A stretch of DNA of 64,000 nt from Escherichia coli (GCF_003991155.1 NZ_CP031293.1); one strand, 5' to 3'; positions 3,778 to 59,575 are shown, counted from the stretch's first letter. Made by a program: numbers and translations. The notes: generated by a model not told the origin, from the letters alone.

Positions 3778-4272
3778 TTATGAACAACTGTCCATGATTT
3801 CGTTTAAGAATGAAGAGAAATCACTAAACGAACTGAATATATTTTCTGTGCCAATATTATCTCTAATTTCAAAAAAGTTATTTTTAATGTCATAAGTAAA
3901 TATTGAAATGCTATCATCCCCGATCACTAACCGTTCTTGTAGATCAGGGTTTATGAAATCATCATTATTTCTATAAAATTCATTTACGGCAAAAAGGTTT
4001 TTAACTGAAGGTTCTGGAATCGAGAGGCTGAATAATCGTAATCCATTAACTTCGAATCCATCCATTGCTCTTAAAAAAGTAAGATAATCAGGTTGATTAT
4101 TAAAGAGAATACTAACTTCATTACATAACTTCTCCAGGCAATTAGTTGGATTAGAATTAAATTTTATTTGGATTATACTTTCAATAAATGATTCCTTGAG
4201 CGGTGCTTCAAATGGATAGTCTAAATCATTCATCATTTTTTTTAATTTATTTATTTGGGTTTTAGTCATCAT
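3778..4272 (-). CDS. hypothetical 164-aa protein; candidate cognate immunity protein for the YhhZ HNH toxin (occupies the yrhA position)
   Basis: ORF immediately downstream of yhhZ on the same strand with a 4-nt ATGA start/stop overlap (4269-4272); AT-rich, acidic, no signal peptide. The immunity role is inferred from synteny and coupling only. Confidence 0.6.
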   Translation of the reverse strand: MMTKTQINKLKKMMNDLDYPFEAPLKESFIESIIQIKFNSNPTNCLEKLCNEVSILFNNQPDYLTFLRAMDGFEVNGLRLFSLSIPEPSVKNLFAVNEFYRNNDDFINPDLQERLVIGDDSISIFTYDIKNNFFEIRDNIGTENIFSSFSDFSSFLNEIMDSCS

Positions 4273-5447
4273 TTTGTGGGTTCCATAATATTTTTCATGG
4301 GAGGATAAATTGAGCCAGATGGAATGGCCCAGGGAGTGATTTTGCTTTCACCTACTAATATTCCCTTAGCTATTCGTGATTGCATGTTAGTAAAAACTTT
4401 ATGATATGGTTCGTTTTCGATTAATACTAAATTTTCGAAATCATTAGTACCACCATCATCTAGAGATAGTTTATGGTGAACATTATAATTTAGAGGAACA
4501 TTGCCCTTTCTCATTCTTAAAAGGTCTTCGGCGTTGAATCTTCCAGATGCTTCGGAGGTTTTTGCAAGTTTGATAAGAAAATTTTTTCTTACAGTTTTAT
4601 TAAACTCCTTTCGTAAGTTAGCTAAGTCTTTTGAAGGTCTCTTAATGTATATTATTTCTATTATGTCTATACCATCAAGAAGTTTTTGTTGACCTCTAAG
4701 TTTGCCTAAGTAACTATTTATTTCTGTATATGTATCAACATTAGAACGCTTTGTTAAAAGAATAGATGCTGTTGCTATCGCTATGCCCGCTGTTTTTTCA
4801 TTTAGTATTTGATCATAGCCTTTTATTGCATCTCCACCCAGTTTTTCCGCAGTATCTCTGAATCCTTCAATGTTCCCATTGTATACGCCACCAGCAGCAA
4901 GTAGCCTGCCAATAGCTTTGCTGTTTAACGTTTTGAAACGATTATTTGTTTGGTTTTTTGAATTTGGTAAAAACAAACAGTTATAATTTTCAGGGAGTGC
5001 CAAATAGCTGAACTCGGTATTTGCGATAATCTGTTGACAGAGGATAAATTCATAACTAACAGTTATTGTTTCTGTATCCAGTTGATTTTCAATGATCTGA
5101 TGATGAATAGCCGATAAAAAAGCGCCTCTTAGTTGTATATAATAATACTTTTCCCATCTACCAAATCTATTTATTCGATAGAAGTCAAATCCCATAAATA
5201 ATTGTTCATTATTGTTAATGGAATTAATAAATAATGGAGTGCTTTTATCAATTAATTTACAAAATGTTATACCATGGAACTGTGAACCAAGCCCCGTATT
5301 AGTAATACTATTTAAGAGTGAGAATGTAAATATTTCATCCTCATGCCCGCTCTGCCAGCGATTACCTGTAGACTCAGAAGTCCCACAACCTGCGGAGATG
5401 CTTCCTTGTTGTTCTCCCGTTACTGTCAGGTAAACAATATTACTCAT
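4269..5447 (-). CDS. yhhZ: Hcp-family protein with a C-terminal HNH nuclease domain (Hcp extended-toxin type, YhhZ)
   Basis: 392 aa; the N-terminal ~160 aa look Hcp1-like (MSNIVYLTVTGEQQGSISAG...), and the C-terminus carries an HNH-like motif (NYNVHHKLSLDDGGTNDFENLVLIENEPYHKVF); markedly AT-rich compared with its neighbours. Confidence 0.8.
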   Translation of the reverse strand: MSNIVYLTVTGEQQGSISAGCGTSESTGNRWQSGHEDEIFTFSLLNSITNTGLGSQFHGITFCKLIDKSTPLFINSINNNEQLFMGFDFYRINRFGRWEKYYYIQLRGAFLSAIHHQIIENQLDTETITVSYEFILCQQIIANTEFSYLALPENYNCLFLPNSKNQTNNRFKTLNSKAIGRLLAAGGVYNGNIEGFRDTAEKLGGDAIKGYDQILNEKTAGIAIATASILLTKRSNVDTYTEINSYLGKLRGQQKLLDGIDIIEIIYIKRPSKDLANLRKEFNKTVRKNFLIKLAKTSEASGRFNAEDLLRMRKGNVPLNYNVHHKLSLDDGGTNDFENLVLIENEPYHKVFTNMQSRIAKGILVGESKITPWAIPSGSIYPPMKNIMEPTK

Positions 5448-6293: not shown

Positions 6294-6383
6294 GCGATCA
6301 GGAAGACCCTCGCGGAGAACCTGAAAGCACGACATTGCTCACATTGCTTCCAGTATTACTTAGCCAGCCGGGTGCTGGCTTTT
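6294..6383 (+). ncRNA. ryhB: RyhB small regulatory RNA (Fur-repressed, iron-sparing)
   Basis: Base-for-base match to the RyhB sequence as I recall it (GCGATCAGGAAGACCCTCGCGGAGAACCTGAAAGCACGACATTGCTCACATTGCTTCCAGTATTACTTAGCCAGCCGGGTGCTGGCTTTT), ending in a GC-rich hairpin and U-tract; sits between yhhY and yhhX as in K-12. Confidence 0.95.
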
Positions 6384-6505
6384 TTTTTGATCTTTCGTTT
6401 TCAAATTATCCACGGGAAGTGCTTGTGTTCGTTATGCGCACTCCAGTAGGAACCACGTCCGCTTTGCGCTAAGGTGTAAATAACCCCCTTAAAAAGGACG
6501 AAATC

Positions 6506-10249: not shown

Positions 10250-11590
10250 GTGACTACATTAACGCTTGTTTTAACAGCAGTAGGGTCTGTTTTACTGCTG
10301 CTGTTTTTAGTCATGAAGGCGCGTATGCACGCTTTCCTGGCTTTGATGGTGGTGTCCATGGGGGCTGGCCTTTTTTCCGGTATGCCGCTCGATAAAATCG
10401 CAGCGACGATGGAAAAAGGGATGGGAGGCACCCTCGGCTTTCTGGCGGTGGTTGTCGCCCTGGGAGCCATGTTTGGCAAGATCTTACATGAAACCGGCGC
10501 AGTCGATCAGATTGCCGTCAAAATGCTCAAATCCTTCGGTCACAGCCGCGCGCATTATGCCATCGGCCTTGCGGGGCTGGTCTGTGCGCTACCGCTGTTC
10601 TTTGAAGTGGCGATTGTTCTGCTGATTAGCGTTGCTTTCTCAATGGCGCGCCACACCGGTACGAACCTGGTGAAGCTGGTAATCCCATTATTCGCAGGCG
10701 TGGCGGCCGCGGCTGCGTTCCTGGTGCCTGGACCAGCGCCAATGCTGCTGGCATCGCAGATGAACGCCGACTTTGGCTGGATGATCCTGATTGGCCTGTG
10801 TGCGGCAATTCCGGGAATGATTATTGCCGGGCCGCTGTGGGGTAATTTCATCAGCCGCTACGTGGAGCTGCATATTCCTGACGACATCAGCGAACCACAT
10901 CTCGGTGAAGGCAAAATGCCGTCCTTCGGATTCAGCCTGTCGCTGATCCTGTTGCCACTGGTGCTGGTGGGGCTGAAAACCATTGCCGCGCGTTTTGTGC
11001 CAGAAGGCTCTACCGCTTACGAATGGTTCGAGTTTATCGGCCATCCGTTTACCGCGATTCTGGTTGCTTGTCTGGTAGCAATTTATGGCCTGGCAATGCG
11101 TCAGGGTATGCCAAAAGACAAAGTGATGGAGATTTGTGGTCACGCGCTGCAACCGGCGGGGATCATTCTGCTGGTGATTGGTGCAGGCGGCGTGTTCAAA
11201 CAGGTGCTGGTTGACTCTGGTGTCGGTCCGGCACTGGGCGAAGCGTTAACCGGCATGGGCCTGCCGATTGCCATCACCTGCTTCGTGCTGGCAGCTGCAG
11301 TGCGCATCATTCAGGGTTCTGCCACTGTTGCCTGTTTAACGGCGGTGGGACTGGTAATGCCGGTCATTGAACAACTGAACTACTCCGGTGCGCAAATGGC
11401 GGCGCTGTCGATTTGTATCGCCGGTGGTTCGATTGTTGTCAGCCACGTTAACGACGCGGGTTTCTGGTTGTTCGGTAAATTTACCGGCGCGACCGAAGCC
11501 GAAACGCTTAAAACCTGGACCATGATGGAAACCATCCTCGGCACTGTTGGTGCCATCGTTGGGATGATTGCGTTCCAGCTGTTGAGTTAA
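10250..11590 (+). CDS. gntU: low-affinity gluconate:H+ symporter GntU (GTG start)
   Basis: 446-aa polytopic membrane protein of the GntP family; paralogous to gntT in this window. Confidence 0.9.
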   Translation: MTTLTLVLTAVGSVLLLLFLVMKARMHAFLALMVVSMGAGLFSGMPLDKIAATMEKGMGGTLGFLAVVVALGAMFGKILHETGAVDQIAVKMLKSFGHSRAHYAIGLAGLVCALPLFFEVAIVLLISVAFSMARHTGTNLVKLVIPLFAGVAAAAAFLVPGPAPMLLASQMNADFGWMILIGLCAAIPGMIIAGPLWGNFISRYVELHIPDDISEPHLGEGKMPSFGFSLSLILLPLVLVGLKTIAARFVPEGSTAYEWFEFIGHPFTAILVACLVAIYGLAMRQGMPKDKVMEICGHALQPAGIILLVIGAGGVFKQVLVDSGVGPALGEALTGMGLPIAITCFVLAAAVRIIQGSATVACLTAVGLVMPVIEQLNYSGAQMAALSICIAGGSIVVSHVNDAGFWLFGKFTGATEAETLKTWTMMETILGTVGAIVGMIAFQLLS

Positions 11591-11602
11591 TTACTGCGAC
11601 AA

Positions 11603-11628
11603 ATTACTGCGAGCTTGCTCGCAGTAAT
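11603..11628 (+). terminator. gntU terminator hairpin
   Basis: Perfect inverted repeat attactgcgagc / gctcgcagtaat followed by a T-rich tract. Confidence 0.7.
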
Positions 11629-11729
11629 TCATTTCTCTTATCTCCTCTCTTCATCTTTTTGATCTCTCTCGCAAATTTACCTGCTAATAATCCGTTCTAA
11701 TCACTGCCTAAAGATCGCAGGAGATAAAG

Positions 11730-13826
11730 ATGGAAAAGCACGGAGCTGAATTGCTTTTACAGCGGATGTTAGGAAATACCACCGCTACTTTCAGGGAAGG
11801 GCAATGGGAAGCCATAGATGCAGTGGTTAATCAGCGGCGAAAACTGCTGGTTGTACAGCGCACCGGCTGGGGGAAAAGTGCCGTGTACTTCATCGCCAGT
11901 AAAATCTTCCGCGATCGCGGCGCTGGCCCGACAATTATCATCTCTCCTTTGCTTGCCCTGATGCGTAACCAGGTTGCCGCCGCTGAACGGTTAGGTATTA
12001 CGGCTGAAACGTTGAATTCTACAAACAGGGAAGAATGGCAGCGCATTAGCGATAAGTTGCTGCAAGGTGAGGTCGATTGCTTGCTGGTTTCCCCGGAACG
12101 TTTGGCAAACCAGGACTTTATCGAAACGGTTTTATATCCTATAGCCGATCGTATTGGCTTGCTTGTGGTCGACGAGGCGCACTGCATCTCTGATTGGGGC
12201 CACGATTTTCGCCCGGATTACCGACGTATATTAGATATTTTGCGCCAACTGCCTGCGAATACCCCTGTTCTGGGTACAACCGCGACAGCGAATAACCGTG
12301 TTGTTGAGGATATCCGTCAGCAATTGGGTGACATTGTGATTCAGCGTGGAACGCTGGCTCGCGAAAGTTTGGCGCTTGATGCCTTAGTCTTAGGAGAACA
12401 GTCATCCCGTCTGGCATGGTTAGCAACGGTTATCCCTCAGTTTTCCAAATCGGGAATTGTTTATACCCTGACGACTCGCGATGCTGAACTTGTCGCCGAG
12501 TGGTTAAGGAAAAATGGTATCAGTGCATTTGCTTACTACAGCGGCGTGACTTGTGAAGGCGCGGAAGATTCTAATACTGCCAGGGAATATCTGGAGCAGG
12601 CACTGCTGGCAAATAAAATCAAAGTGCTGGTCGCGACGACGGCATTAGGTATGGGGTTTGATAAACCTGATTTAGGTTTCGTCATTCATTATCAGATGCC
12701 GGGGTCTATTGTCGGTTACTACCAACAGGTGGGGCGTGCCGGGCGTGCTATAGATTCCGCAGTTGGCATATTGCTTTGTGGTGGTGAAGACCGCGCTATT
12801 CATCAATTCTTCCGTGAAAGCGCCTTTCCTGCGGAGGCGCAAATTCATGAAATACTCAACGTACTTAGCGAGAATGACGGTCTTACCCTACGAGGCATTG
12901 AACAACGGACGAATCTTCGTTATGGGCAAATAGAAAAAGCACTGAAATTATTGGTAGCGGAAAATCCATCGCCTGTGGTGTATACCGAGAAATTATGGCG
13001 CAGAACTATCGTCAGTTTTTCTCCTGATCATGAACGAATTAACCATTTGATGAATCAGAGAAAAAGTGAGCTGGCAGACGTTGAAAGCTATATCACGACC
13101 AAGGAGTGCAAAATGCAATTTCTGCGCCGTGCACTCGATGAGCCAAGTGCCGAACGTTGTGGTAAATGTAGCAGTTGTCTTCAACATCCGTTATTGTCGC
13201 CCGACATTGATAGCGGCTTACTCCATGCGGCAAATTTATTTATTAAACACGCTGACCTGCCGTTAAATCTCAATAAACAGGTGGCAGCTGGGGCTTTTAC
13301 GCAATACGGATTTAAAGGGAACTTGCCTGCGGGTTTACAAGGATCTACGGGGCGAATCCTTTCTCGTTGGGGAGATTCCGGGTGGGGAAAGCAGGTAGCA
13401 CAGGAGAAAAAAACGGGGCGCTTAAGTGATGAGCTGGTAGAAGCATGTGCGGAAATGGTTTGCCAACGCTGGAATCCGCATCCTGAACCAACCTGGGTAT
13501 GCTGCGTTCCTTCATTAAGGCACCTCGACCTGGTTCCTGATTTTGCCCGGCGACTGGCGGCGAAACTTGGCTTACCTTTTATTGATGCCATTGAAAAAGT
13601 CGTGGACAATCCACCGCAGAAAATGCAGCAAAACCGTTTTCACCAGTGTCAAAATCTCGACGGGGCGTTTGTGATTACCCCTCCTTTGATGCCAGGTCCG
13701 GCGTTGCTGGTTGACGATATCGTGGATTCTGCATGGACGCTGACAGTTCTGACAGCACTGTTACGCAAGGCAGGTTGCCCGACGGTTTATCCTCTTGCCC
13801 TTGCTTCTACCTCGGTAAAAAATTGA
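11730..13826 (+). CDS. RecQ-like superfamily-2 DNA helicase fused to a C-terminal ComF-type phosphoribosyltransferase-like domain (PsyrT/ShosT-like candidate toxin or defence effector)
   Basis: 698 aa; helicase motifs Walker A (RTGWGKSAVY), DEAH in the RecQ-style context VVDEAHCISDWGHDFRPDY, TATA and QQVGRAGR; a Zn-binding Cys cluster (ERCGKCSSC); the last ~150 aa carry a PRPP-binding-like motif ALLVDDIVDSAWTLTVL resembling gntX/ComF MVIVDDVVTTGST. AGGAGA ribosome-binding site before the ATG. Not part of the K-12 gntU-yhgN junction as I recall it. Confidence 0.8.
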   Translation: MEKHGAELLLQRMLGNTTATFREGQWEAIDAVVNQRRKLLVVQRTGWGKSAVYFIASKIFRDRGAGPTIIISPLLALMRNQVAAAERLGITAETLNSTNREEWQRISDKLLQGEVDCLLVSPERLANQDFIETVLYPIADRIGLLVVDEAHCISDWGHDFRPDYRRILDILRQLPANTPVLGTTATANNRVVEDIRQQLGDIVIQRGTLARESLALDALVLGEQSSRLAWLATVIPQFSKSGIVYTLTTRDAELVAEWLRKNGISAFAYYSGVTCEGAEDSNTAREYLEQALLANKIKVLVATTALGMGFDKPDLGFVIHYQMPGSIVGYYQQVGRAGRAIDSAVGILLCGGEDRAIHQFFRESAFPAEAQIHEILNVLSENDGLTLRGIEQRTNLRYGQIEKALKLLVAENPSPVVYTEKLWRRTIVSFSPDHERINHLMNQRKSELADVESYITTKECKMQFLRRALDEPSAERCGKCSSCLQHPLLSPDIDSGLLHAANLFIKHADLPLNLNKQVAAGAFTQYGFKGNLPAGLQGSTGRILSRWGDSGWGKQVAQEKKTGRLSDELVEACAEMVCQRWNPHPEPTWVCCVPSLRHLDLVPDFARRLAAKLGLPFIDAIEKVVDNPPQKMQQNRFHQCQNLDGAFVITPPLMPGPALLVDDIVDSAWTLTVLTALLRKAGCPTVYPLALASTSVKN

Positions 13827-15028
13827 TGAATCTTTCAGCCAATGCACAAGCGACCCTCCTGCTAACCAGCGATTTTTCTCGCGCGGCGGCGAGTGAGTAT
13901 AAACCTCTTAGTAATAGTGAATGGGGGAAGTTTGCATTATGGCTGAAGCACCAACGTATCAGTCCCGCCGATCTTCTGGTGCCGCAACCGCAAGAGAAAC
14001 TTACAGGCTGGAGCGATCCGCGTATTTCTCAGGAGCGTATTCTTGGCTTGCTGGCGCGTGGCCATAGTCTGGCGTTGGCGGTAGATAAGTGGCAACGCGC
14101 CGGTTTATGGATCTTAACCCGCGGAGATGCCGATTATCCCGTTCGCTTGAAAAACCGATTGCGAACGGATGCACCTCCCGTTTTATTTGGCTGCGGGAAT
14201 AAAGCATTACTGCAAGCGGAAGGTATGGCGATTGTTGGCTCGCGAGATGCTCCGACTGCCGATTTGCGCTATACCCAACAACTGGCAGCGAAACTGGCCC
14301 AACAGGGGATTTGCGTTATCTCTGGTGGTGCGCGAGGTATTGATGAATGTGCAATGGCGTCGGCACTGGAGGCCGGGGGAACTGCCGTTGGCGTATTAGC
14401 TGATAGCTTGTTAAAAACGAGTACGTTAGTGAAATGGCGTGAAGGGCTTATAGCAGGCAACCTGGTGTTGATTTCGCCGTTTTACCCAGAGGTACGTTTC
14501 ACCGTCGGCAATGCGATGGCGCGAAATAAATATATTTATTGCCTTGCTGAAAGCGCAATGGTTGTACGTGCGGGAATGACCGGTGGAACGATAACCGGAG
14601 CGATGGAGGCGTTAAAACATCAGTGGCTGCCTGTGCAGGTTAAACCAAATCAGGATGTGCAATCAGCCAATTCACGATTAGTAGAAAATGGGGCGTCATG
14701 GAGTGCTGAACAGGCTGAGAATGTGACGATCAGACTGCCAGACGTTCCTGGGCTGATGTATGACAGAGCACTCCGTAACGCTCAACCAGAATTGTTTTCG
14801 CTGCACGAAGATGACGCAAATTACGCAGTGATGCCCTCGCATACCCCTGTCGATTTTTATCAACTTTTTGTGGCGGAACTGGCGATCCTTGCAAAGGAAT
14901 CGATAAGTATTGAAAGGCTGGCGTCTTGTACTGGTTTAACCATCGAACAAATTAGTGTGTGGCTGAACCGCGCAGAAGAAGAGGGAAGGGTTATCCGATT
15001 GGGCGAAGGTCATTATCAGTTCAGGTAA
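13826..15028 (+). CDS. DprA/Smf-like Rossmann-fold DNA-processing protein (PsyrA/ShosA-like candidate antitoxin or partner)
   Basis: 400 aa from the ATG at 13826, which overlaps the upstream TGA (TGATG, translational coupling); DprA signature (MAIVGSRDAPTADLRY ... VISGGARGIDECAMASALEAGG) and a C-terminal winged-helix-like tail; the track's longer ORF from 13733 is an in-frame extension into the upstream gene. Confidence 0.8.
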   Translation: MNLSANAQATLLLTSDFSRAAASEYKPLSNSEWGKFALWLKHQRISPADLLVPQPQEKLTGWSDPRISQERILGLLARGHSLALAVDKWQRAGLWILTRGDADYPVRLKNRLRTDAPPVLFGCGNKALLQAEGMAIVGSRDAPTADLRYTQQLAAKLAQQGICVISGGARGIDECAMASALEAGGTAVGVLADSLLKTSTLVKWREGLIAGNLVLISPFYPEVRFTVGNAMARNKYIYCLAESAMVVRAGMTGGTITGAMEALKHQWLPVQVKPNQDVQSANSRLVENGASWSAEQAENVTIRLPDVPGLMYDRALRNAQPELFSLHEDDANYAVMPSHTPVDFYQLFVAELAILAKESISIERLASCTGLTIEQISVWLNRAEEEGRVIRLGEGHYQFR

Positions 15029-15030
15029 TA

Positions 15031-15068
15031 AAACAGGTGCCGCCTCTGGTTGTGTGCAGCACCTGTTT
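15031..15068. terminator. hairpin between the island and the yhgN 3' end
   Basis: Inverted repeat aaacaggtgc ... gcacctgttt with an 18-nt loop, between the DprA-like stop and the yhgN stop. Confidence 0.45.
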
Positions 15069-15073
15069 GAACC

Positions 15074-15667
15074 TTACCCTTTCATCCACATTCGAATGCC
15101 GTCGAGGAACATCTGGGTTGCCATCATCACCAGAATCAATCCCATCAGGCGTTCAAGTGCATTCACCCCTTTCTCGCCCAGCAGACGTAAAAATAGCGAA
15201 GACTGTAGCAGGATAACAAAGGTGCCACCCCAGGCCAGCAGCAGAGCAATTACCAGATGTCCCATCTGATTCGGGTACTGATGAGACAACAACATCAGCG
15301 TGGCGAGAATAGTCGGCCCGGCGACTAACGGAATTGCCAACGGCACGATAAACGGCTCTTCACCTGCCGGAAGCCCGCTGCTATTTCCTGAAGCGCTGGG
15401 GAAAATCATCTTAATGGCGATCAGAAACAGAATGATGCCGCCAGAAATGGAGACGGTTTCTGCTCGCAGGCTGAGAAATGCCAGAATTTTCTCACCCGCA
15501 AACAGGAACACCAGCATCACCAGGAGAGCAATAAGCAACTCCCGCACCATGATTGCCCGCCGTCTTTTCGGTTCAGTATGTTTCAGTACGGACATGAAAA
15601 TAGGTAGGTTTCCGAGCGGATCCATAATCAGGATCAATAAAACTGCTGCAGAAATGATTTCATTCAT
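15074..15667 (-). CDS. yhgN: MarC-family inner-membrane protein YhgN
   Basis: 197-aa hydrophobic protein (MNEIISAAVLLILIMDPLGNLPIF...), typical of the UPF0056/MarC family. Confidence 0.9.
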   Translation of the reverse strand: MNEIISAAVLLILIMDPLGNLPIFMSVLKHTEPKRRRAIMVRELLIALLVMLVFLFAGEKILAFLSLRAETVSISGGIILFLIAIKMIFPSASGNSSGLPAGEEPFIVPLAIPLVAGPTILATLMLLSHQYPNQMGHLVIALLLAWGGTFVILLQSSLFLRLLGEKGVNALERLMGLILVMMATQMFLDGIRMWMKG

Positions 15668-15858
15668 AACTCAAATTCCCTGATAATTGCCGCGGACTTT
15701 CTGCGTGCTAACAAAGCAGGATAAGTCGCATTACTGATGGCTTCGCTATCATTGATTAATTTCACTTGCGACTTTGGCTGCTTTTTGTATGGTGAAAGAT
15801 GTGCCAGGAGGAGACCGGCACATTTATACAGCACACATCTTTGCAGGAAAAAACGCTT

Positions 15859-26648: not shown

Positions 26649-26731
26649 GCCTTTATTTAGGAAAAGTGTCCAGAGGGGGCGAGGGTTATCGGGGAGTATA
26701 ATTTCGCCATTCAGCAAGAATGGAAAGAATA

Positions 26732-28237
26732 ATGCAAAACGGAAAATGGATTTTGACCTCGCTGGTAATGACTTTTTTTGGCATCCCCATACTGGCGCAA
26801 TTTTTGGCAGCGGTTGTTGCCATGCTGGGGGCCGGGCTTGCCGCTATTCTTGAGGTTTGCAATTTACTCTTTACGCCAACAATTTATCTTCTACTCAACG
26901 TCTTTATGCTGACGCTGGGGGCGATAATCATATTTTTCTCTGGTCGCGTGTGGACTGGTGATAGCGCACCAGAAAAAAGAGAAATAGCCGCCTGGCGACA
27001 ATGCTTTTTTCTCTTACCCGCGCTATTAACCCTGATTGGCTGGATAATCGCGCTACATCTGGCAGATTATCAACTTCGCCAGATGGGAGCCGGTTGGTTG
27101 GCAAACCTTATGCTTCCCTGGTTGGGCGTTTTTACAGTCTCATTCGTCGGTGGTGAGTACTGGTGGATAGTCATTATTCCCGTTGGCGCGCATATCAGTT
27201 TTTCACTGGGATACGGCTGGCCGACCAGACACCCTTTAACCGGCACCTCCGGTCTACGTTGCCGTAATTTACTTCTGTTCATTCTTCTCTTACTGGGTAT
27301 TGTCGCTGGTTATCAGGCTTATTTATATAAACAGCTTAATCCCGGCGTCGGTGTGCGTGAAAATATTGATACCTGGGCCTGGCGACCCGATAAACTTAAT
27401 AATCAACTGACGCCACTGCGTGGTAAACCACAAATTCAATTTACGCAAAACTGGCCGCGACTCGATGGCGCTACGGCGGCGTACCCCATTTATGCCTCTG
27501 CATTTTATGCATTAAGTGTAATACCAGAGGATTTTCACGTTTGGGATTATCTGGATAACTCTCGTACGCCAGAAGCATATAACAAAATCGTTAACGGTGA
27601 TGCCGATATTATTTTCGTGGCGCAACCTTCCGATGGGCAAAAAAAACGCGCTGAGAAATCGGGCGTCACTTTGCTGTACACGCCATTTGCCCGTGAAGCG
27701 TTTGTTTTCATCGTCAATGCGGATAATCCGGTTAATTCCCTGACTGAACAACAAGTGCGTGACATTTTTAGTGGCGAAATTACCAACTGGCGCACGGTTG
27801 GCGGTAAGGATCAGGAGATCCAGACCTGGCAACGCCCGGAAGACTCTGGCAGCCAGACAGTGATGCAATCACAGGTCATGAAAAATGTCCGCATGATCTC
27901 GCCGCAGGAAACCGAAGTGGCAAGCATGATGGAGGGAATGATTAAAGTCGTTGCCGAATACCGTAATACAAACAACGCAATAGGCTACACCTTCCGCTAT
28001 TACGCAACACAAATGAATGCCGATAAAAATATAAAACTGCTAGCGATTAACGGTATTGCACCGACTGCGGAAAATATTCGTAACGGCAAATATCCGTATA
28101 TCATCGATGCCTTTATGGTAACGCGGGAAAATACTACGTCAGAAACACAAAAACTGGTCGAATGGTTTTTAACGCCGCAGGGACAGAGTCTGGTGGAAGA
28201 TGTGGGCTATGTGCCGCTGTATCCAACAATGAAATAA
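26732..28237 (+). CDS. membrane-anchored PstS-like substrate-binding protein (N-terminal polytopic membrane domain fused to a C-terminal phosphate/oxyanion-binding-protein-like domain)
   Basis: About 200 aa of hydrophobic helices, then a binding-protein-like domain with an R-x-x-D-S-G-S-Q-T motif (QRPEDSGSQTVM) reminiscent of the PstS phosphate-binding loop; start taken at the ATG at 26732 (MQNGKW, GGAAAG upstream), though 26720 is also possible. K-12 has only a pseudogene remnant (yzgL) at this position, from memory. Confidence 0.65.
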   Translation: MQNGKWILTSLVMTFFGIPILAQFLAAVVAMLGAGLAAILEVCNLLFTPTIYLLLNVFMLTLGAIIIFFSGRVWTGDSAPEKREIAAWRQCFFLLPALLTLIGWIIALHLADYQLRQMGAGWLANLMLPWLGVFTVSFVGGEYWWIVIIPVGAHISFSLGYGWPTRHPLTGTSGLRCRNLLLFILLLLGIVAGYQAYLYKQLNPGVGVRENIDTWAWRPDKLNNQLTPLRGKPQIQFTQNWPRLDGATAAYPIYASAFYALSVIPEDFHVWDYLDNSRTPEAYNKIVNGDADIIFVAQPSDGQKKRAEKSGVTLLYTPFAREAFVFIVNADNPVNSLTEQQVRDIFSGEITNWRTVGGKDQEIQTWQRPEDSGSQTVMQSQVMKNVRMISPQETEVASMMEGMIKVVAEYRNTNNAIGYTFRYYATQMNADKNIKLLAINGIAPTAENIRNGKYPYIIDAFMVTRENTTSETQKLVEWFLTPQGQSLVEDVGYVPLYPTMK

Positions 28238-28262
28238 CGCTCGAGAGAAAGGAATCAGCGCA

Positions 28263-29255
28263 ATGAATAAATTCACCGGTGTTTTACTATTAGGTACGGC
28301 GCTACTGGCGGGATGTGTCGACCGGGAAGGGTACTATAACAGCGTCAGGGAAGAAGACAGCCATGGACTGACGTCTCTGCGGGGGCAACCTGAATTACGT
28401 TACAACGATGATTGGTCAAGATGGCCGAGAGTGTACGGCGCTACAGCCTTATACCCGCTGTATGCCTCCGCGTATTATGAATTAGTACCCGAGCCAAAAG
28501 ATAAGGATCGAACCTCGCTGGCCTGGCAGGCGTATGGTTTGCAACAAACCCGAACAGCTGAAGCCTACGATAGTCTGATTAAGGGTACCGCGACGGTTAT
28601 TTTTGTTGCACAACCGTCGGAAGGACAGAAAAAACGTGCAGAAGAAGCAGGTGTTAAACTCAAATATACCGCTTTCGCCCGCGAAGCCTTTGTCTTTATC
28701 GTTGATATCAAAAACCCGGTTAATTCACTTAGCGAACAGCAGGTCAAAGACATTTTTAGCGGTAAAGTGAGTCGCTGGAATAAAGTGGGCGGCGGTGACG
28801 AAAGTATAAAAGTCTGGCAGCGGCCAGAAGATTCTGGAAGCCAAACGGTTATGAAGGGACTGGTTATGCAAGATACTCCAATGCTGCCAGCCAAAAAATC
28901 CACTGTTATCGATCTTATGGGCGGTTTAATTACCGAAGTCGCCGACTACCAAAATACACCATCTTCTATTGGATACACCTTCTACTATTACGTCACACGT
29001 ATGAATGACAATATGCTCAAAATGCGCAAACAGATCAAACTGCTGGCTATAAATGGCGTTGCACCTACAGAGGAAAATATCCGTAACGGCACTTATCCGT
29101 ACATAATTCATGCTTATATGGTGACGCACGAAAACCCTACGCTGGAAACACAGAAATTCGTCGACTGGTTTTTAAGCCCGCAGGGACAGCAATTGGTAGA
29201 GGATGTGGGCTATGTGCCGATTTATGACGCATCATCCGAATCATCAGGACAATAA
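28263..29255 (+). CDS. PstS-like substrate-binding lipoprotein, paralog of the C-terminal domain of the upstream gene
   Basis: 330 aa; lipoprotein signal with lipobox (MNKFTGVLLLGTALLAGC); shares long near-identical blocks with the upstream protein (VIFVAQPSEGQKKRAEEAGV, QRPEDSGSQTVM, KLLAINGVAPTEENIRNGTYPYII, VEDVGYVPIY); AAGGAA ribosome-binding site. Confidence 0.7.
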   Translation: MNKFTGVLLLGTALLAGCVDREGYYNSVREEDSHGLTSLRGQPELRYNDDWSRWPRVYGATALYPLYASAYYELVPEPKDKDRTSLAWQAYGLQQTRTAEAYDSLIKGTATVIFVAQPSEGQKKRAEEAGVKLKYTAFAREAFVFIVDIKNPVNSLSEQQVKDIFSGKVSRWNKVGGGDESIKVWQRPEDSGSQTVMKGLVMQDTPMLPAKKSTVIDLMGGLITEVADYQNTPSSIGYTFYYYVTRMNDNMLKMRKQIKLLAINGVAPTEENIRNGTYPYIIHAYMVTHENPTLETQKFVDWFLSPQGQQLVEDVGYVPIYDASSESSGQ

Positions 29256-29257
29256 AG

Positions 29258-29863
29258 ATGAATAAAATCAGACTTTATATTCCTCCGTTAATTCTTGGTT
29301 TTGTTATTGTGCCGTTGTTGGTGTGGCCGACGGTGGTTGCGCTGGCTGCTTGTGTTATCACGCTGAGTTTTATGGGAGAAATACTGTTCTCTATCCCGCT
29401 CATGTTCAGGAGTATTTCACTTCTGGAATTCCAACTTGGGTTATTGGCTGAATATGCACTTTTTTTCTGTGCCATGTGTTGCGTTGGTTGGCAATTTTCT
29501 TGCAGAACTCAATCTGAACTGAAAAGCAGACTCCATTGTTGGTTGGTATTTGCACCAGTTTATTTCTGGTTGCTCCTGTGGAATATCATTTTCTATGTCG
29601 CGCCAGCGCAAATTGCTTTGCTGGAAAATATGCGCAATTTCTTTCTGACCATTGTCTGGTTACCCCTGAATTTTTTTCAATTTGGGTCTCAGCCGTGGAC
29701 TGACTTTATCGGTCCGATAAGCGCCCAGCTTGGTTTTGCATTGGGATATTATTGCCAGTGGCGTAGCAAAAATAGAAGTCAGAGGAAGAAGTGGGGCGAG
29801 TGGGTAACGTGCTTAAGTTTGGCGATTTTAGCTCAGGGGCCGTTATTCAATTATTTACAATGA
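29258..29863 (+). CDS. hypothetical polytopic membrane protein
   Basis: 201-aa ORF with about five hydrophobic segments, 2 bp after the lipoprotein gene (probable operon); no recognisable family from sequence alone. Confidence 0.5.
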   Translation: MNKIRLYIPPLILGFVIVPLLVWPTVVALAACVITLSFMGEILFSIPLMFRSISLLEFQLGLLAEYALFFCAMCCVGWQFSCRTQSELKSRLHCWLVFAPVYFWLLLWNIIFYVAPAQIALLENMRNFFLTIVWLPLNFFQFGSQPWTDFIGPISAQLGFALGYYCQWRSKNRSQRKKWGEWVTCLSLAILAQGPLFNYLQ

Positions 29864-47840: not shown

Positions 47841-49332
<1,492 letters not shown>

Positions 49333-58876: not shown

Positions 58877-58904
58877 ACGGGAGGTGAAGGTGCCTCCCGT
58901 TTTT
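58877..58904. terminator. envZ terminator, shared with the convergent antitoxin gene
   Basis: acgggagg tgaaggtg cctcccgt followed by TTTT; the minus-strand antitoxin stop codon (58903-58905) abuts the T-run. Confidence 0.7.
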
Positions 58905-59199
58905 AGATTGTTTTCAATTGATTGATAATGAAAGGATTCGCTTGCAAAAGCAGGAGCAATTTTCGGGGTGCTCCGGTAGGCTGACGGCGTTTGGTTTCCC
59001 AGCTTTTGACCAGGTCATAACTTACCCCTACGGCGACAGCAAAATCTTGCTGACGTAAACCCGTTGCTTCACGGATCGCTTTTACATCGATTTCGCTAAA
59101 AGTATGGACGTGCTCTGGTTCTGGCGTTTCTTCACCCTTTTCGATGCGTACCATTTCTTCTGCGCTGGCAAGAAGATCAGCAAATAATTCATCTTTCAT
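58903..59199 (-). CDS. HigA-like antitoxin (XRE-type helix-turn-helix DNA-binding protein)
   Basis: 98 aa; helix-turn-helix segment (IREATGLRQQDFAVAVGVSYDLVKSWETKRRQPTGAPRKLL) typical of HigA/NadS-type antitoxins; 58 bp downstream of the toxin gene on the same strand. Confidence 0.75.
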   Translation of the reverse strand: MKDELFADLLASAEEMVRIEKGEETPEPEHVHTFSEIDVKAIREATGLRQQDFAVAVGVSYDLVKSWETKRRQPTGAPRKLLLLLQANPFIINQLKTI

Positions 59200-59257
59200 C
59201 TGTTTTCAATGCCTCCGTTGACATTTCGGCCATGGTGGAATTTGTGGAGCTTCAACA

Positions 59258-59575
59258 TTAAAGCAGCTTCTCGGACAATAGTTTCAATGCCTTTCTTTGT
59301 TCTTCTGTTAAATCATCCTGTTCATTTTTAGGATAAATCAACGCCAGATAAATTCGGCCATTGCGTGTTACGTTGTAATAAATTATCCGAATGCCACCCC
59401 GTTTCCCCATTCCAGAACGGTTCCAGCGAATTTTTCTAAAACTGCCTGTGCCTGCGATAATGTCACCGGCAGTGGGATCTTGAATGAGTAGTTCCTGAAA
59501 AGCCCGGAACTCATCATCAGGTAGCAATAACTGGCGGCGTTTGCTAAATCCTTGTAGTTCAATAAAGGTGAACAT
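59258..59575 (-). CDS. HigB-like toxin (RelE/ParE superfamily mRNA interferase)
   Basis: 105 aa with the GTG-x-R-K-I-R ... G-K-R-G-G-x-R-I-I-Y-Y ... L-x-x-I-Y-x-K-N-E motif (GSFRKIRWNRSGMGKRGGIRIIYY, LALIYPKNEQDDLT) that I associate with Vibrio-type HigB toxins; toxin-first gene order is characteristic of HigBA. Absent from the K-12 envZ-pckA junction as I recall it. Confidence 0.75.
   Translation of the reverse strand: MFTFIELQGFSKRRQLLLPDDEFRAFQELLIQDPTAGDIIAGTGSFRKIRWNRSGMGKRGGIRIIYYNVTRNGRIYLALIYPKNEQDDLTEEQRKALKLLSEKLL

Follow-up and report, generated by a model that had tools for sequence, protein, structure and literature searches.

In a 64,000-nt stretch of Escherichia coli DNA (GCF_003991155.1, NZ_CP031293.1; the window hereafter), we found that the two genes lying between gntU and yhgN very probably constitute the rqlH-rqlI operon, also known as PsyrTA, a toxin-antitoxin-like two-gene module, which is the best explanation of the locus as a whole. 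The first gene, rqlH or psyrT (11730..13826), codes for a 698-aa RecQ-like helicase fused to a ComF-type phosphoribosyltransferase (PRTase) domain, the toxin, and the second, rqlI or psyrA (13826..15028), for a 400-aa DprA-like antitoxin; both are on the plus strand, as are the other features of this segment unless stated otherwise. We equate the locus with the published rqlHI/PsyrTA because of its matches to PADLOC profiles, its protein sizes and residue numbers, its occurrence at the same site in CFT073 and its match to the construct SG127. It is a locus that is already known, catalogued and genetically dissected, and its recovery here is a rediscovery and not a new system. A preliminary description of the window had assigned the pair to the PsyrTA-type toxin-antitoxin or defence class, which is upheld by profile matches along the entire length of PsyrT and PsyrA in the PADLOC search that it had proposed; its view of the system as poorly characterised does not hold, as E. 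coli RqlH and RqlI were dissected in 2015 and the segment was cloned as SG127.

The PADLOC PsyrT profile (PDLC03928) matches RqlH with 1061.7 bits, residues 3–697 aligning with profile positions 5–687 of 689, and the PsyrA profile (PDLC03927) matches RqlI with 669.5 bits, residues 1–400 aligning with positions 1–397 of 398. The C-terminal domain of RqlH on its own scores 248.7 bits against the PsyrT profile (positions 494–687), which hence includes the PRTase domain. The arrangement of the genes, with rqlH upstream of rqlI, adjacent, co-oriented and overlapping, fits the published gene-order rule for RqlHI, and RqlH displays the domain order of its family, namely a RecQ-like ATPase, a linker, a tetracysteine Zn module and a ComF-like PRTase, with no HRDC domain. 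The E. coli proteins described previously have 698 and 400 aa and were studied through the mutants K49A, D148A, D663A, DIVD663EVME and a PRTase deletion of residues 509–690 (Russell & Mulvey 2015, PLoS Pathog 11:e1005317); the residue numbering of the window RqlH (K49, D148, DIVD663) coincides exactly with theirs. In that work, rqlI was deleted in three extraintestinal pathogenic E. coli strains (F11, CFT073 and 536). In CFT073, the pair occupies the same gntU-yhgN position, with the same protein accessions as clone D i2, and the window proteins are 98.3% (RqlH) and 98.5% (RqlI) identical to these B2 alleles, from which they differ by 12 and 6 amino-acid substitutions, respectively. PsyrTA is described as "also called RqlHI", with a DprA-like antitoxin and a PRTase-containing toxin (Millman et al. 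2022), and construct SG127, from E. coli STEC 1299, is listed as PsyrTA with an insert of 3485 bp, a PsyrT of 698 aa and a PsyrA of 400 aa (Millman preprint Table S2). The displayed start of the SG127 insert is identical to 11590–11652 of the window (63 nt, no mismatch), an insert of 3485 bp from 11590 ends at 15074 and takes in the entire gntU-yhgN spacer, and the displayed protein prefixes show one difference (PsyrT) and two differences (PsyrA) from the window proteins.

We predict RqlH to be a RecQ-like 3′-5′ helicase with a Zn module and, in the place of the HRDC domain, a ComF-type PRTase domain that binds phosphoribosyl pyrophosphate (PRPP). The helicase motifs, the Zn-binding Cys cluster and the PRPP-like motif that had been noted in the 698-aa open reading frame (ORF) are each found at their place: GWGKS at residue 46 (Walker lysine K49), DEAH at 148, CISDWGHDFRP at 152, TATA at 184, QQVGRAGR at 332, CGKCSSC at 477 (C477, C480 and C483) together with C460, and the PRPP-binding loop LLVDDIVDSAWT (13704..13739; residues 659–670), which begins at residue 659, with its DIVD starting at 663. 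The superfamily 2 RecQ-family ATPase/helicase core (11787..12797; residues ~20–356), with Walker A K49 and D148 of the DEAH motif, is recovered by Pfam as DEAD (4.9e-25) and Helicase_C (4.2e-13), passes the RecQ-family model TIGR00614 recQ_fam (252.8 bits vs a cut-off of 219.8) and matches the PDB RecQ structure 1oyw (2.1e-53). The RqlH-specific linker (12798..13055; residues ~357–442), which separates the ATPase from the Zn module, shows a faint winged-helix MarR_2 match alone (Pfam, E = 0.19); a spacer of 90 aa has been described in the Mycobacterium smegmatis RqlH (Ordonez, Unciuleac & Shuman 2012). Then follow the RecQ-type tetracysteine Zn-binding module (13056..13181; C460, C477, C480 and C483), with a weak match to RecQ_Zn_bind (1.4e-3, residues 443–484), and the C-terminal ComF-type PRTase domain (13254..13823; residues ~509–698), the genotoxic domain in published work, with a likewise weak match to Pribosyltran (3.9e-3, residues 605–684). 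Neither an RQC nor an HRDC domain is among the Pfam matches of RqlH, and we rejected its assignment as a bona fide RecQ, given these missing matches and scores of 296.3 vs 640.2 bits (TIGR01389) and 225.5 vs 1015 bits (NF008279).

A search of PDB sequences with the C-terminal domain alone returned nothing significant, the best entry being an adenine phosphoribosyltransferase (APRT; E = 0.14). As the Pribosyltran match is weak, we modelled residues 490–698 with AlphaFold2 from an alignment of nine homologues (mean predicted local distance difference test score 90.6) and compared the model by fold. Foldseek against PDB retrieved type I phosphoribosyltransferases only; Helicobacter pylori ComFC (7p0h) gave the best superposition (TMq 0.52, 3.8 Å, 170 columns), and adenine PRTases had E-values similar to those of ComFC. 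The label put on a truncated rqlH copy by the Prokaryotic Genome Annotation Pipeline (PGAP) is "ComF family protein". This domain does resemble, as claimed, the product of the gntX gene in the window (47841-48524, minus strand), although only weakly: the two share 26% identity across 76 aa, with a pairwise E of 9e-6. GntX is also its top NCBIfam match, at a sub-threshold score. Orthology with ComFC/GntX was rejected (NF008616, 15.8 vs 304 bits), the likeness being at the level of the fold only. Across the nine homologues, which come from five phyla (E. coli chromosome and plasmid copies, Nostoc, Acinetobacter, Sinorhizobium, two haloarchaea, Arthrobacter and Tsukamurella), K49, D148, D663 and W669 are invariant, and the Zn-binding cysteines vary, the Sinorhizobium protein (one of the nine) having no three-cysteine cluster C477/C480/C483.

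RqlI has a DprA/SLOG Rossmann domain (14090..14701; residues 89–292), matched by Pfam DNA_processg_A (2.2e-50) and, overlapping it, by the SLOG-type LDcluster4 (9.9e-11), and a C-terminal region with a putative helix-turn-helix (HTH; 14813..15025), which draws on a faint HTH_26 match (residues 354–382, E = 0.35) and on the published domain map. This C-terminal region is dispensable for neutralisation of RqlH, as seen with a 1-320 truncation (Russell & Mulvey 2015). Profile searches, suggested earlier as a check, thus detect the helicase, PRTase (by the weak Pribosyltran match) and DprA domains alike. Only the domain-level Pfam match of RqlI is strong, and its assignment as a bona fide DprA/Smf was rejected (TIGR00732, 102.1 vs 191.15 bits; NF008007, 80.1 vs 495). 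Because both proteins fall far below the RecQ and DprA equivalog cut-offs, the pair is RecQ-like and DprA-like and distinct from the housekeeping RecQ and DprA.

The ORF that ends at 15028 has two possible starts, at 13826 (400 aa) or at an in-frame ATG at 13733 (431 aa). PGAP/RefSeq chooses the latter, 31 codons upstream and inside rqlH, and annotates the 431-aa product as "DprA". We favour the 400-aa form because the PADLOC PsyrA profile starts at its residue 1, the published length of RqlI is 400 aa (Russell & Mulvey 2015) and the same form is used in the SG127 table and by other gene callers; the 431-aa PGAP start is probably too long. The mis-annotation of this start (window 13733-13825) looks systematic across many E. 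coli genomes.

With the shorter form, rqlH and rqlI meet in a TGATG stop/start overlap (13824..13828), in which the rqlH TGA (13824–13826) and the rqlI ATG (13826–13828) have one base in common. This overlap, noted previously along with the translational coupling of the two ORFs, is confirmed, with 13826 as the shared base, and couples their translation. An AGGAG ribosome-binding site, as read from the sequence, lies 6 nt 5′ of the rqlH ATG (11719..11723), and a promoter scan of the 139-nt spacer upstream of rqlH yielded no sigma-70-like site on the plus strand. The gntU stop codon is at 11588–11590, and just 3′ of it stands the left hairpin (11602..11629), a perfect 12-bp stem followed by a T-rich tail (−16.6 kcal/mol, z = −5.46), which probably serves as the terminator of gntU and marks where the island begins on its left side. 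The right hairpin (15031..15068), common to the convergent 3′ ends of rqlI and yhgN, folds with −18.7 kcal/mol on the plus and −20.9 kcal/mol on the minus strand and is probably a bidirectional terminator and the right edge. Both flanking hairpins fold well, consistent with the earlier placement of the island between two terminators; no Rfam family matches within it, even at E ≤ 1.

The strain-variable segment (11590..15074) stands in place of the 56-nt gntU-yhgN spacer of K-12. In a K-12-type genome, gntU and yhgN are 56 nt apart with nothing between them, and this spacer is not alignable with the island edges; the earlier statement that the two genes are adjacent in K-12 was correct. A 4.7-kb query with both flanks had matches in 5424 of 5426 complete E. 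coli genomes, with full coverage in 1641, and the island alone is present in 1650 of the 5426 (30%), always on the chromosome and never on a plasmid, at a median of one and a maximum of two places per matching genome, with every match at least 95% identical. It occurs, for example, in ST131, JJ1887, clone D i2, CFT073 and O157:H7. The proposed comparison of this junction across genomes therefore reveals a presence/absence polymorphism, with an empty site in K-12. The segment had been called an accessory insertion of ~3.4 kb: it is accessory, being absent from K-12, and may have been either inserted here or deleted from K-12-like lineages. There is no integrase or insertion sequence (IS), in agreement with the earlier remark on the island; a repeat search found no flanking direct or inverted repeats, and the GC content (49.4% vs 51.3% for the window) is not anomalous. 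Synonymous and nonsynonymous codon differences from the B2 allele stand at 42:12 in rqlH and 14:6 in rqlI; both genes are under purifying selection across phylogroups. An assembly labelled E. fergusonii also has the island between gntU and yhgN and is 98% identical to the window in the island, 95–96% in gntK, gntU and yhgN, and 85% in asd; this pattern fits exchange by homologous recombination through the flanks and is compatible with insertion and deletion alike. In published surveys, PsyrTA is enriched in phylogroup E2 (Wu et al.), and E. coli PsyrTA systems have similar genomic contexts, with expression correlated between strains (2025 preprint).

Beyond this site, we found no full-length RqlH homologues in the phage collection and 12 in the plasmid collection. 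Some homologues are associated with defence loci: an E. coli IncF plasmid (NZ_OX030731.1, 2694-12773) carries an rqlHI paralogue, 60% and 47% identical, between hsdS and hsdR of a type I restriction-modification (R-M) operon, an Acinetobacter plasmid has an rqlHI pair between pglX and pglZ of BREX-1, and PsyrTA lies within BREX in a Halomonas genome. The copies on actinobacterial and haloarchaeal plasmids are RqlH genes that stand alone, in neighbourhoods unrelated to defence, which agrees with the published occurrence of RqlH without RqlI in most Gram-positive bacteria (Russell & Mulvey 2015). Among them, Halomicrobium and Halanaeroarchaeum plasmids encode full-length RqlH proteins (43–44% identical, D663 kept) with no RqlI; the RqlH papers cited here describe the family in bacteria only. 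In E. coli NRZ94505 (NZ_OZ501598.1, 4552-7788), ISEcp1-blaCTX-M-15 breaks rqlH, so that a "ComF family" remnant of the PRTase is left next to an intact rqlI.

The behaviour of the pair is known from published genetics (Russell & Mulvey 2015). When RqlH is made without RqlI, cells induce the SOS response, filament, undergo mutagenesis and lose viability, and this toxicity is abolished by the PRTase deletion 509–690, by D663A or by DIVD663EVME. The PRTase domain alone is non-toxic and is needed in cis with the rest of RqlH; the helicase-dead K49A and D148A mutants are toxic, with incomplete rescue, and helicase activity also restrains the PRTase domain. RqlI, which is co-transcribed with rqlH, binds and neutralises RqlH, for which it needs its DprA/SLOG region and not the HTH. 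Deletion of rqlI has strongly deleterious effects, in vitro as well as in vivo, from which deletion of rqlH rescues the strain. Transformation with a psyrA deletion construct was not achieved (Millman et al. 2022). Biochemically, the M. smegmatis RqlH acts as a DNA-dependent ATPase and 3′-5′ helicase that does not require the C-domain (Ordonez et al. 2012). We posit that the PRTase domain would be tethered by the helicase to replication intermediates or single-stranded DNA and would there cause DNA damage through a PRPP-dependent reaction on a base, the nucleotide pool or DNA, and that the TGATG coupling would keep RqlI made alongside RqlH. In a defence setting, infection could release the RqlH toxin and bring about abortive infection, either through loss of the antitoxin after host shut-off, by analogy with ShosTA, or because the helicase or the DprA domain senses phage DNA. 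In ShosTA, shut-off by T7 Gp0.7 and an unstable antitoxin release a PRPP-binding toxin, with ensuing DNA damage and filamentation.

Several points weigh against reading the window pair as a toxin-antitoxin and defence module. The toxin-antitoxin behaviour was published for F11-type alleles of the same size and numbering and not for the window allele. We found no paper giving the substrate or structure of the RqlH PRTase in the literature searched, and no solved structure covering this domain in a PDB search. The occurrence of RqlH without RqlI in most Gram-positives and on archaeal and actinobacterial plasmids argues that RqlH is not always a toxin. No defence was observed with SG127, the E. 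coli STEC 1299 PsyrTA (Millman et al.), and PsyrTA of E. coli NILS69 gave no protection, whether assessed by deletion in the native host or by expression in K-12, where it caused a growth defect. On the other side stand the verified protection against phages by PsyrTA of Bacillus sp. FJAT-29814 (Millman et al.) and the defence association of the paralogues within a type I R-M operon and BREX loci. Because phage protection by E. coli alleles has been sought twice and not seen, the benefit of the E. coli allele is unproven, and it may be partly kept by addiction.

Of the other explanations, an unlikely one is that of a domesticated DNA-processing module, a chromosomal analogue of ComFA/ComFC/DprA acting on single-stranded DNA in repair, recombination or uptake, the toxicity of which is a side effect of unbalanced expression. 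This idea, raised by Russell & Mulvey and by Iyer et al., is favoured by the proximity of the C-domain to ComFC in fold and to GntX in sequence, the strong DprA domain in RqlI, the fixed syntenic site with no mobility genes in 30% of E. coli, with alleles under purifying selection, the occupation of the same site in the E. fergusonii-labelled assembly, the solo RqlH of many taxa and the absence of observed phage defence for the E. coli alleles. However, it does not account for paralogues embedded in R-M and BREX operons or for the phage protection conferred by the Bacillus homologue, and the double deletion has no reported repair or uptake phenotype: the rqlHI deletion is viable and was reported with more persisters and no repair defect (Russell & Mulvey 2015). 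We give the same low probability to E. coli rqlHI having a non-antiphage function as a helicase-guided PRPP-dependent enzyme acting on DNA or a nucleobase at single-stranded DNA (e.g., through phosphoribosylation of DNA or synthesis of a nucleotide signal), for which RqlI would be a DprA-like partner in DNA loading or regulation.

Somewhat less probable still is a purely selfish addiction module, kept at this site because loss of rqlI with rqlH retained is deleterious, the host deriving no benefit. The harm of rqlI deletion and its rescue by rqlH deletion, the lack of observed defence by E. coli alleles and the broken rqlH with intact rqlI in NRZ94505, which is the order of loss that an addiction module allows, are all as expected of such a module, but its toxin-first gene order and protein sizes would be atypical (Russell & Mulvey 2015), both genes are under purifying selection across phylogroups, and the paralogues lie repeatedly within defence operons.

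We consider it very improbable that the locus is a novel chimera, with the helicase of PsyrT and the PRTase of ShosT fused into a new or poorly characterised defence system, as the preliminary description had it. Both PsyrTA and ShosTA do pair a DprA-like antitoxin with a PRTase-containing toxin, and RqlI has a partial ShosA match (92.5 bits, PADLOC). But the PRTase domain is already part of the PsyrT profile, and the claim of a fusion rests on a mistaken picture of PsyrT. A RecQ-like ATPase (residues 1–346), a specific linker, a Zn domain (435–499) and a ComF-like PRTase C-domain with no HRDC were described in the M. smegmatis RqlH (Ordonez et al. 2012), and the same helicase-Zn-PRTase architecture in E. 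coli RqlH (Russell & Mulvey 2015); the joining of a helicase to a PRTase is what defines RqlH/PsyrT and has been on record since 2012. The partner of the ShosT PRTase, moreover, is an N-terminal pyrophosphatase domain and not a helicase. Identity with ShosT was also rejected by direct search: no PADLOC ShosT model matched the C-domain or residues 351–499 at E ≤ 1, none was among the 25 matches listed for the whole of RqlH at E ≤ 0.01, and no entry described as ShosT was among the top 50 fold matches of the C-domain model.

Scarcely credible is a stray DpdF component of the Dpd 7-deazaguanine DNA-modification/restriction system: many PADLOC "DpdF" models match RqlH (up to 309.7 bits) and two match the PRTase domain, but the NCBIfam DpdF equivalog NF041063 gives 149 bits vs a cut-off of 550, no other dpd genes are near, the neighbours being gntU and yhgN, and the match to the PsyrT model is much stronger and covers the entire protein. 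As a separate observation, the two short "DpdF" models PDLC02869 and PDLC02866 (74 and 255 positions), which match window 13227-13823, mainly the PRTase, with 178 and 52 bits, appear to be pieces of RqlH entered under the DpdF name, from which spurious Dpd calls could arise.

The rqlHI/PsyrTA locus is thus one that standard tools (PADLOC, DefenseFinder) already call, with its own E. coli genetics paper and a defence assay of the cloned segment, and readers who rely on annotation only will keep rediscovering it. The interest that it retains lies in the chemistry of the PRTase substrate and product and in what the E. coli allele defends against, if anything, which are matters for the field as a whole and not specific to this window.

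Elsewhere in the 64-kb window, a few further features merit mention. The RefSeq record NZ_CP029747.1 is 100% identical to the window over 11000-15700, and its gene coordinates agree up to ~29.9 kb and, starting with gntX, are offset by 25 nt; therefore, the two differ by a 25-nt indel between ~29.9 kb and 47.8 kb. An Hcp1-family (tssD/yhhZ) gene (3778-5447, minus strand) overlaps yrhA, is adjoined in the matching RefSeq record by pseudogene remnants of yrhD and yrhB, and looks like an orphan cassette akin to type VI secretion system effectors. The RyhB small RNA (6323-6387, plus strand; Rfam RF00057, 83.1 bits) is the sole Rfam family above its gathering score in the window. Between glgP and glpD are two genes for PstS-family phosphate-binding proteins and a hypothetical gene (26720-29863, plus strand); in CFT073, a fimbrial operon and hypothetical genes occupy this spacer, which makes it another strain-variable spot. 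Between pckA and envZ lie genes for a RelE/ParE-family toxin and a NadS-family protein (58903-59575, minus strand), annotated as a type II toxin-antitoxin pair.

Among known systems, the window pair is like the E. coli RqlH-RqlI of Russell & Mulvey (2015) in its lengths, K49, D148 and DIVD663, gene order, overlap and site in CFT073, and differs from it by the 12 and 6 substitutions relative to the B2 allele, the assays of that paper having been made on other alleles. With PsyrTA (Sberro et al. 2013; Millman et al. 2022), it shares full-length profile matches of both proteins and adjacent, co-oriented genes, although the protective example comes from Bacillus sp. FJAT-29814 and the E. coli STEC 1299 construct is the one with no observed defence. 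The M. smegmatis RqlH has the same domain order as the window RqlH, likewise with no HRDC, and K49 and D148 at the same numbering, but lacks an RqlI partner, and no toxicity is reported for it; the actinobacterial RqlH homologues compared are 39–44% identical to the window protein. ShosTA (Kimelman 2012; Rousset 2022; Pu et al. 2025; NAR 2026 gkag197) resembles RqlHI in combining a DprA-like antitoxin with a PRPP-binding PRTase toxin, and in the DNA damage and filamentation that result, whereas the PRTase of ShosT is joined to a pyrophosphatase domain with no helicase, and ShosA acts without tight binding (type IV), in contrast to RqlI, which binds RqlH. Finally, the competence proteins ComFA and ComFC (GntX in E. 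coli) together with DprA bring together the same three activities, an SF2 helicase, a ComF-type PRTase and a DprA fold; the window pair differs from them in falling far below the orthologue cut-offs (15.8 vs 304 bits for GntX and 102.1 vs 191.15 bits for DprA), in having a RecQ-family helicase instead of a ComFA helicase and in coexisting with a true gntX elsewhere in the window.

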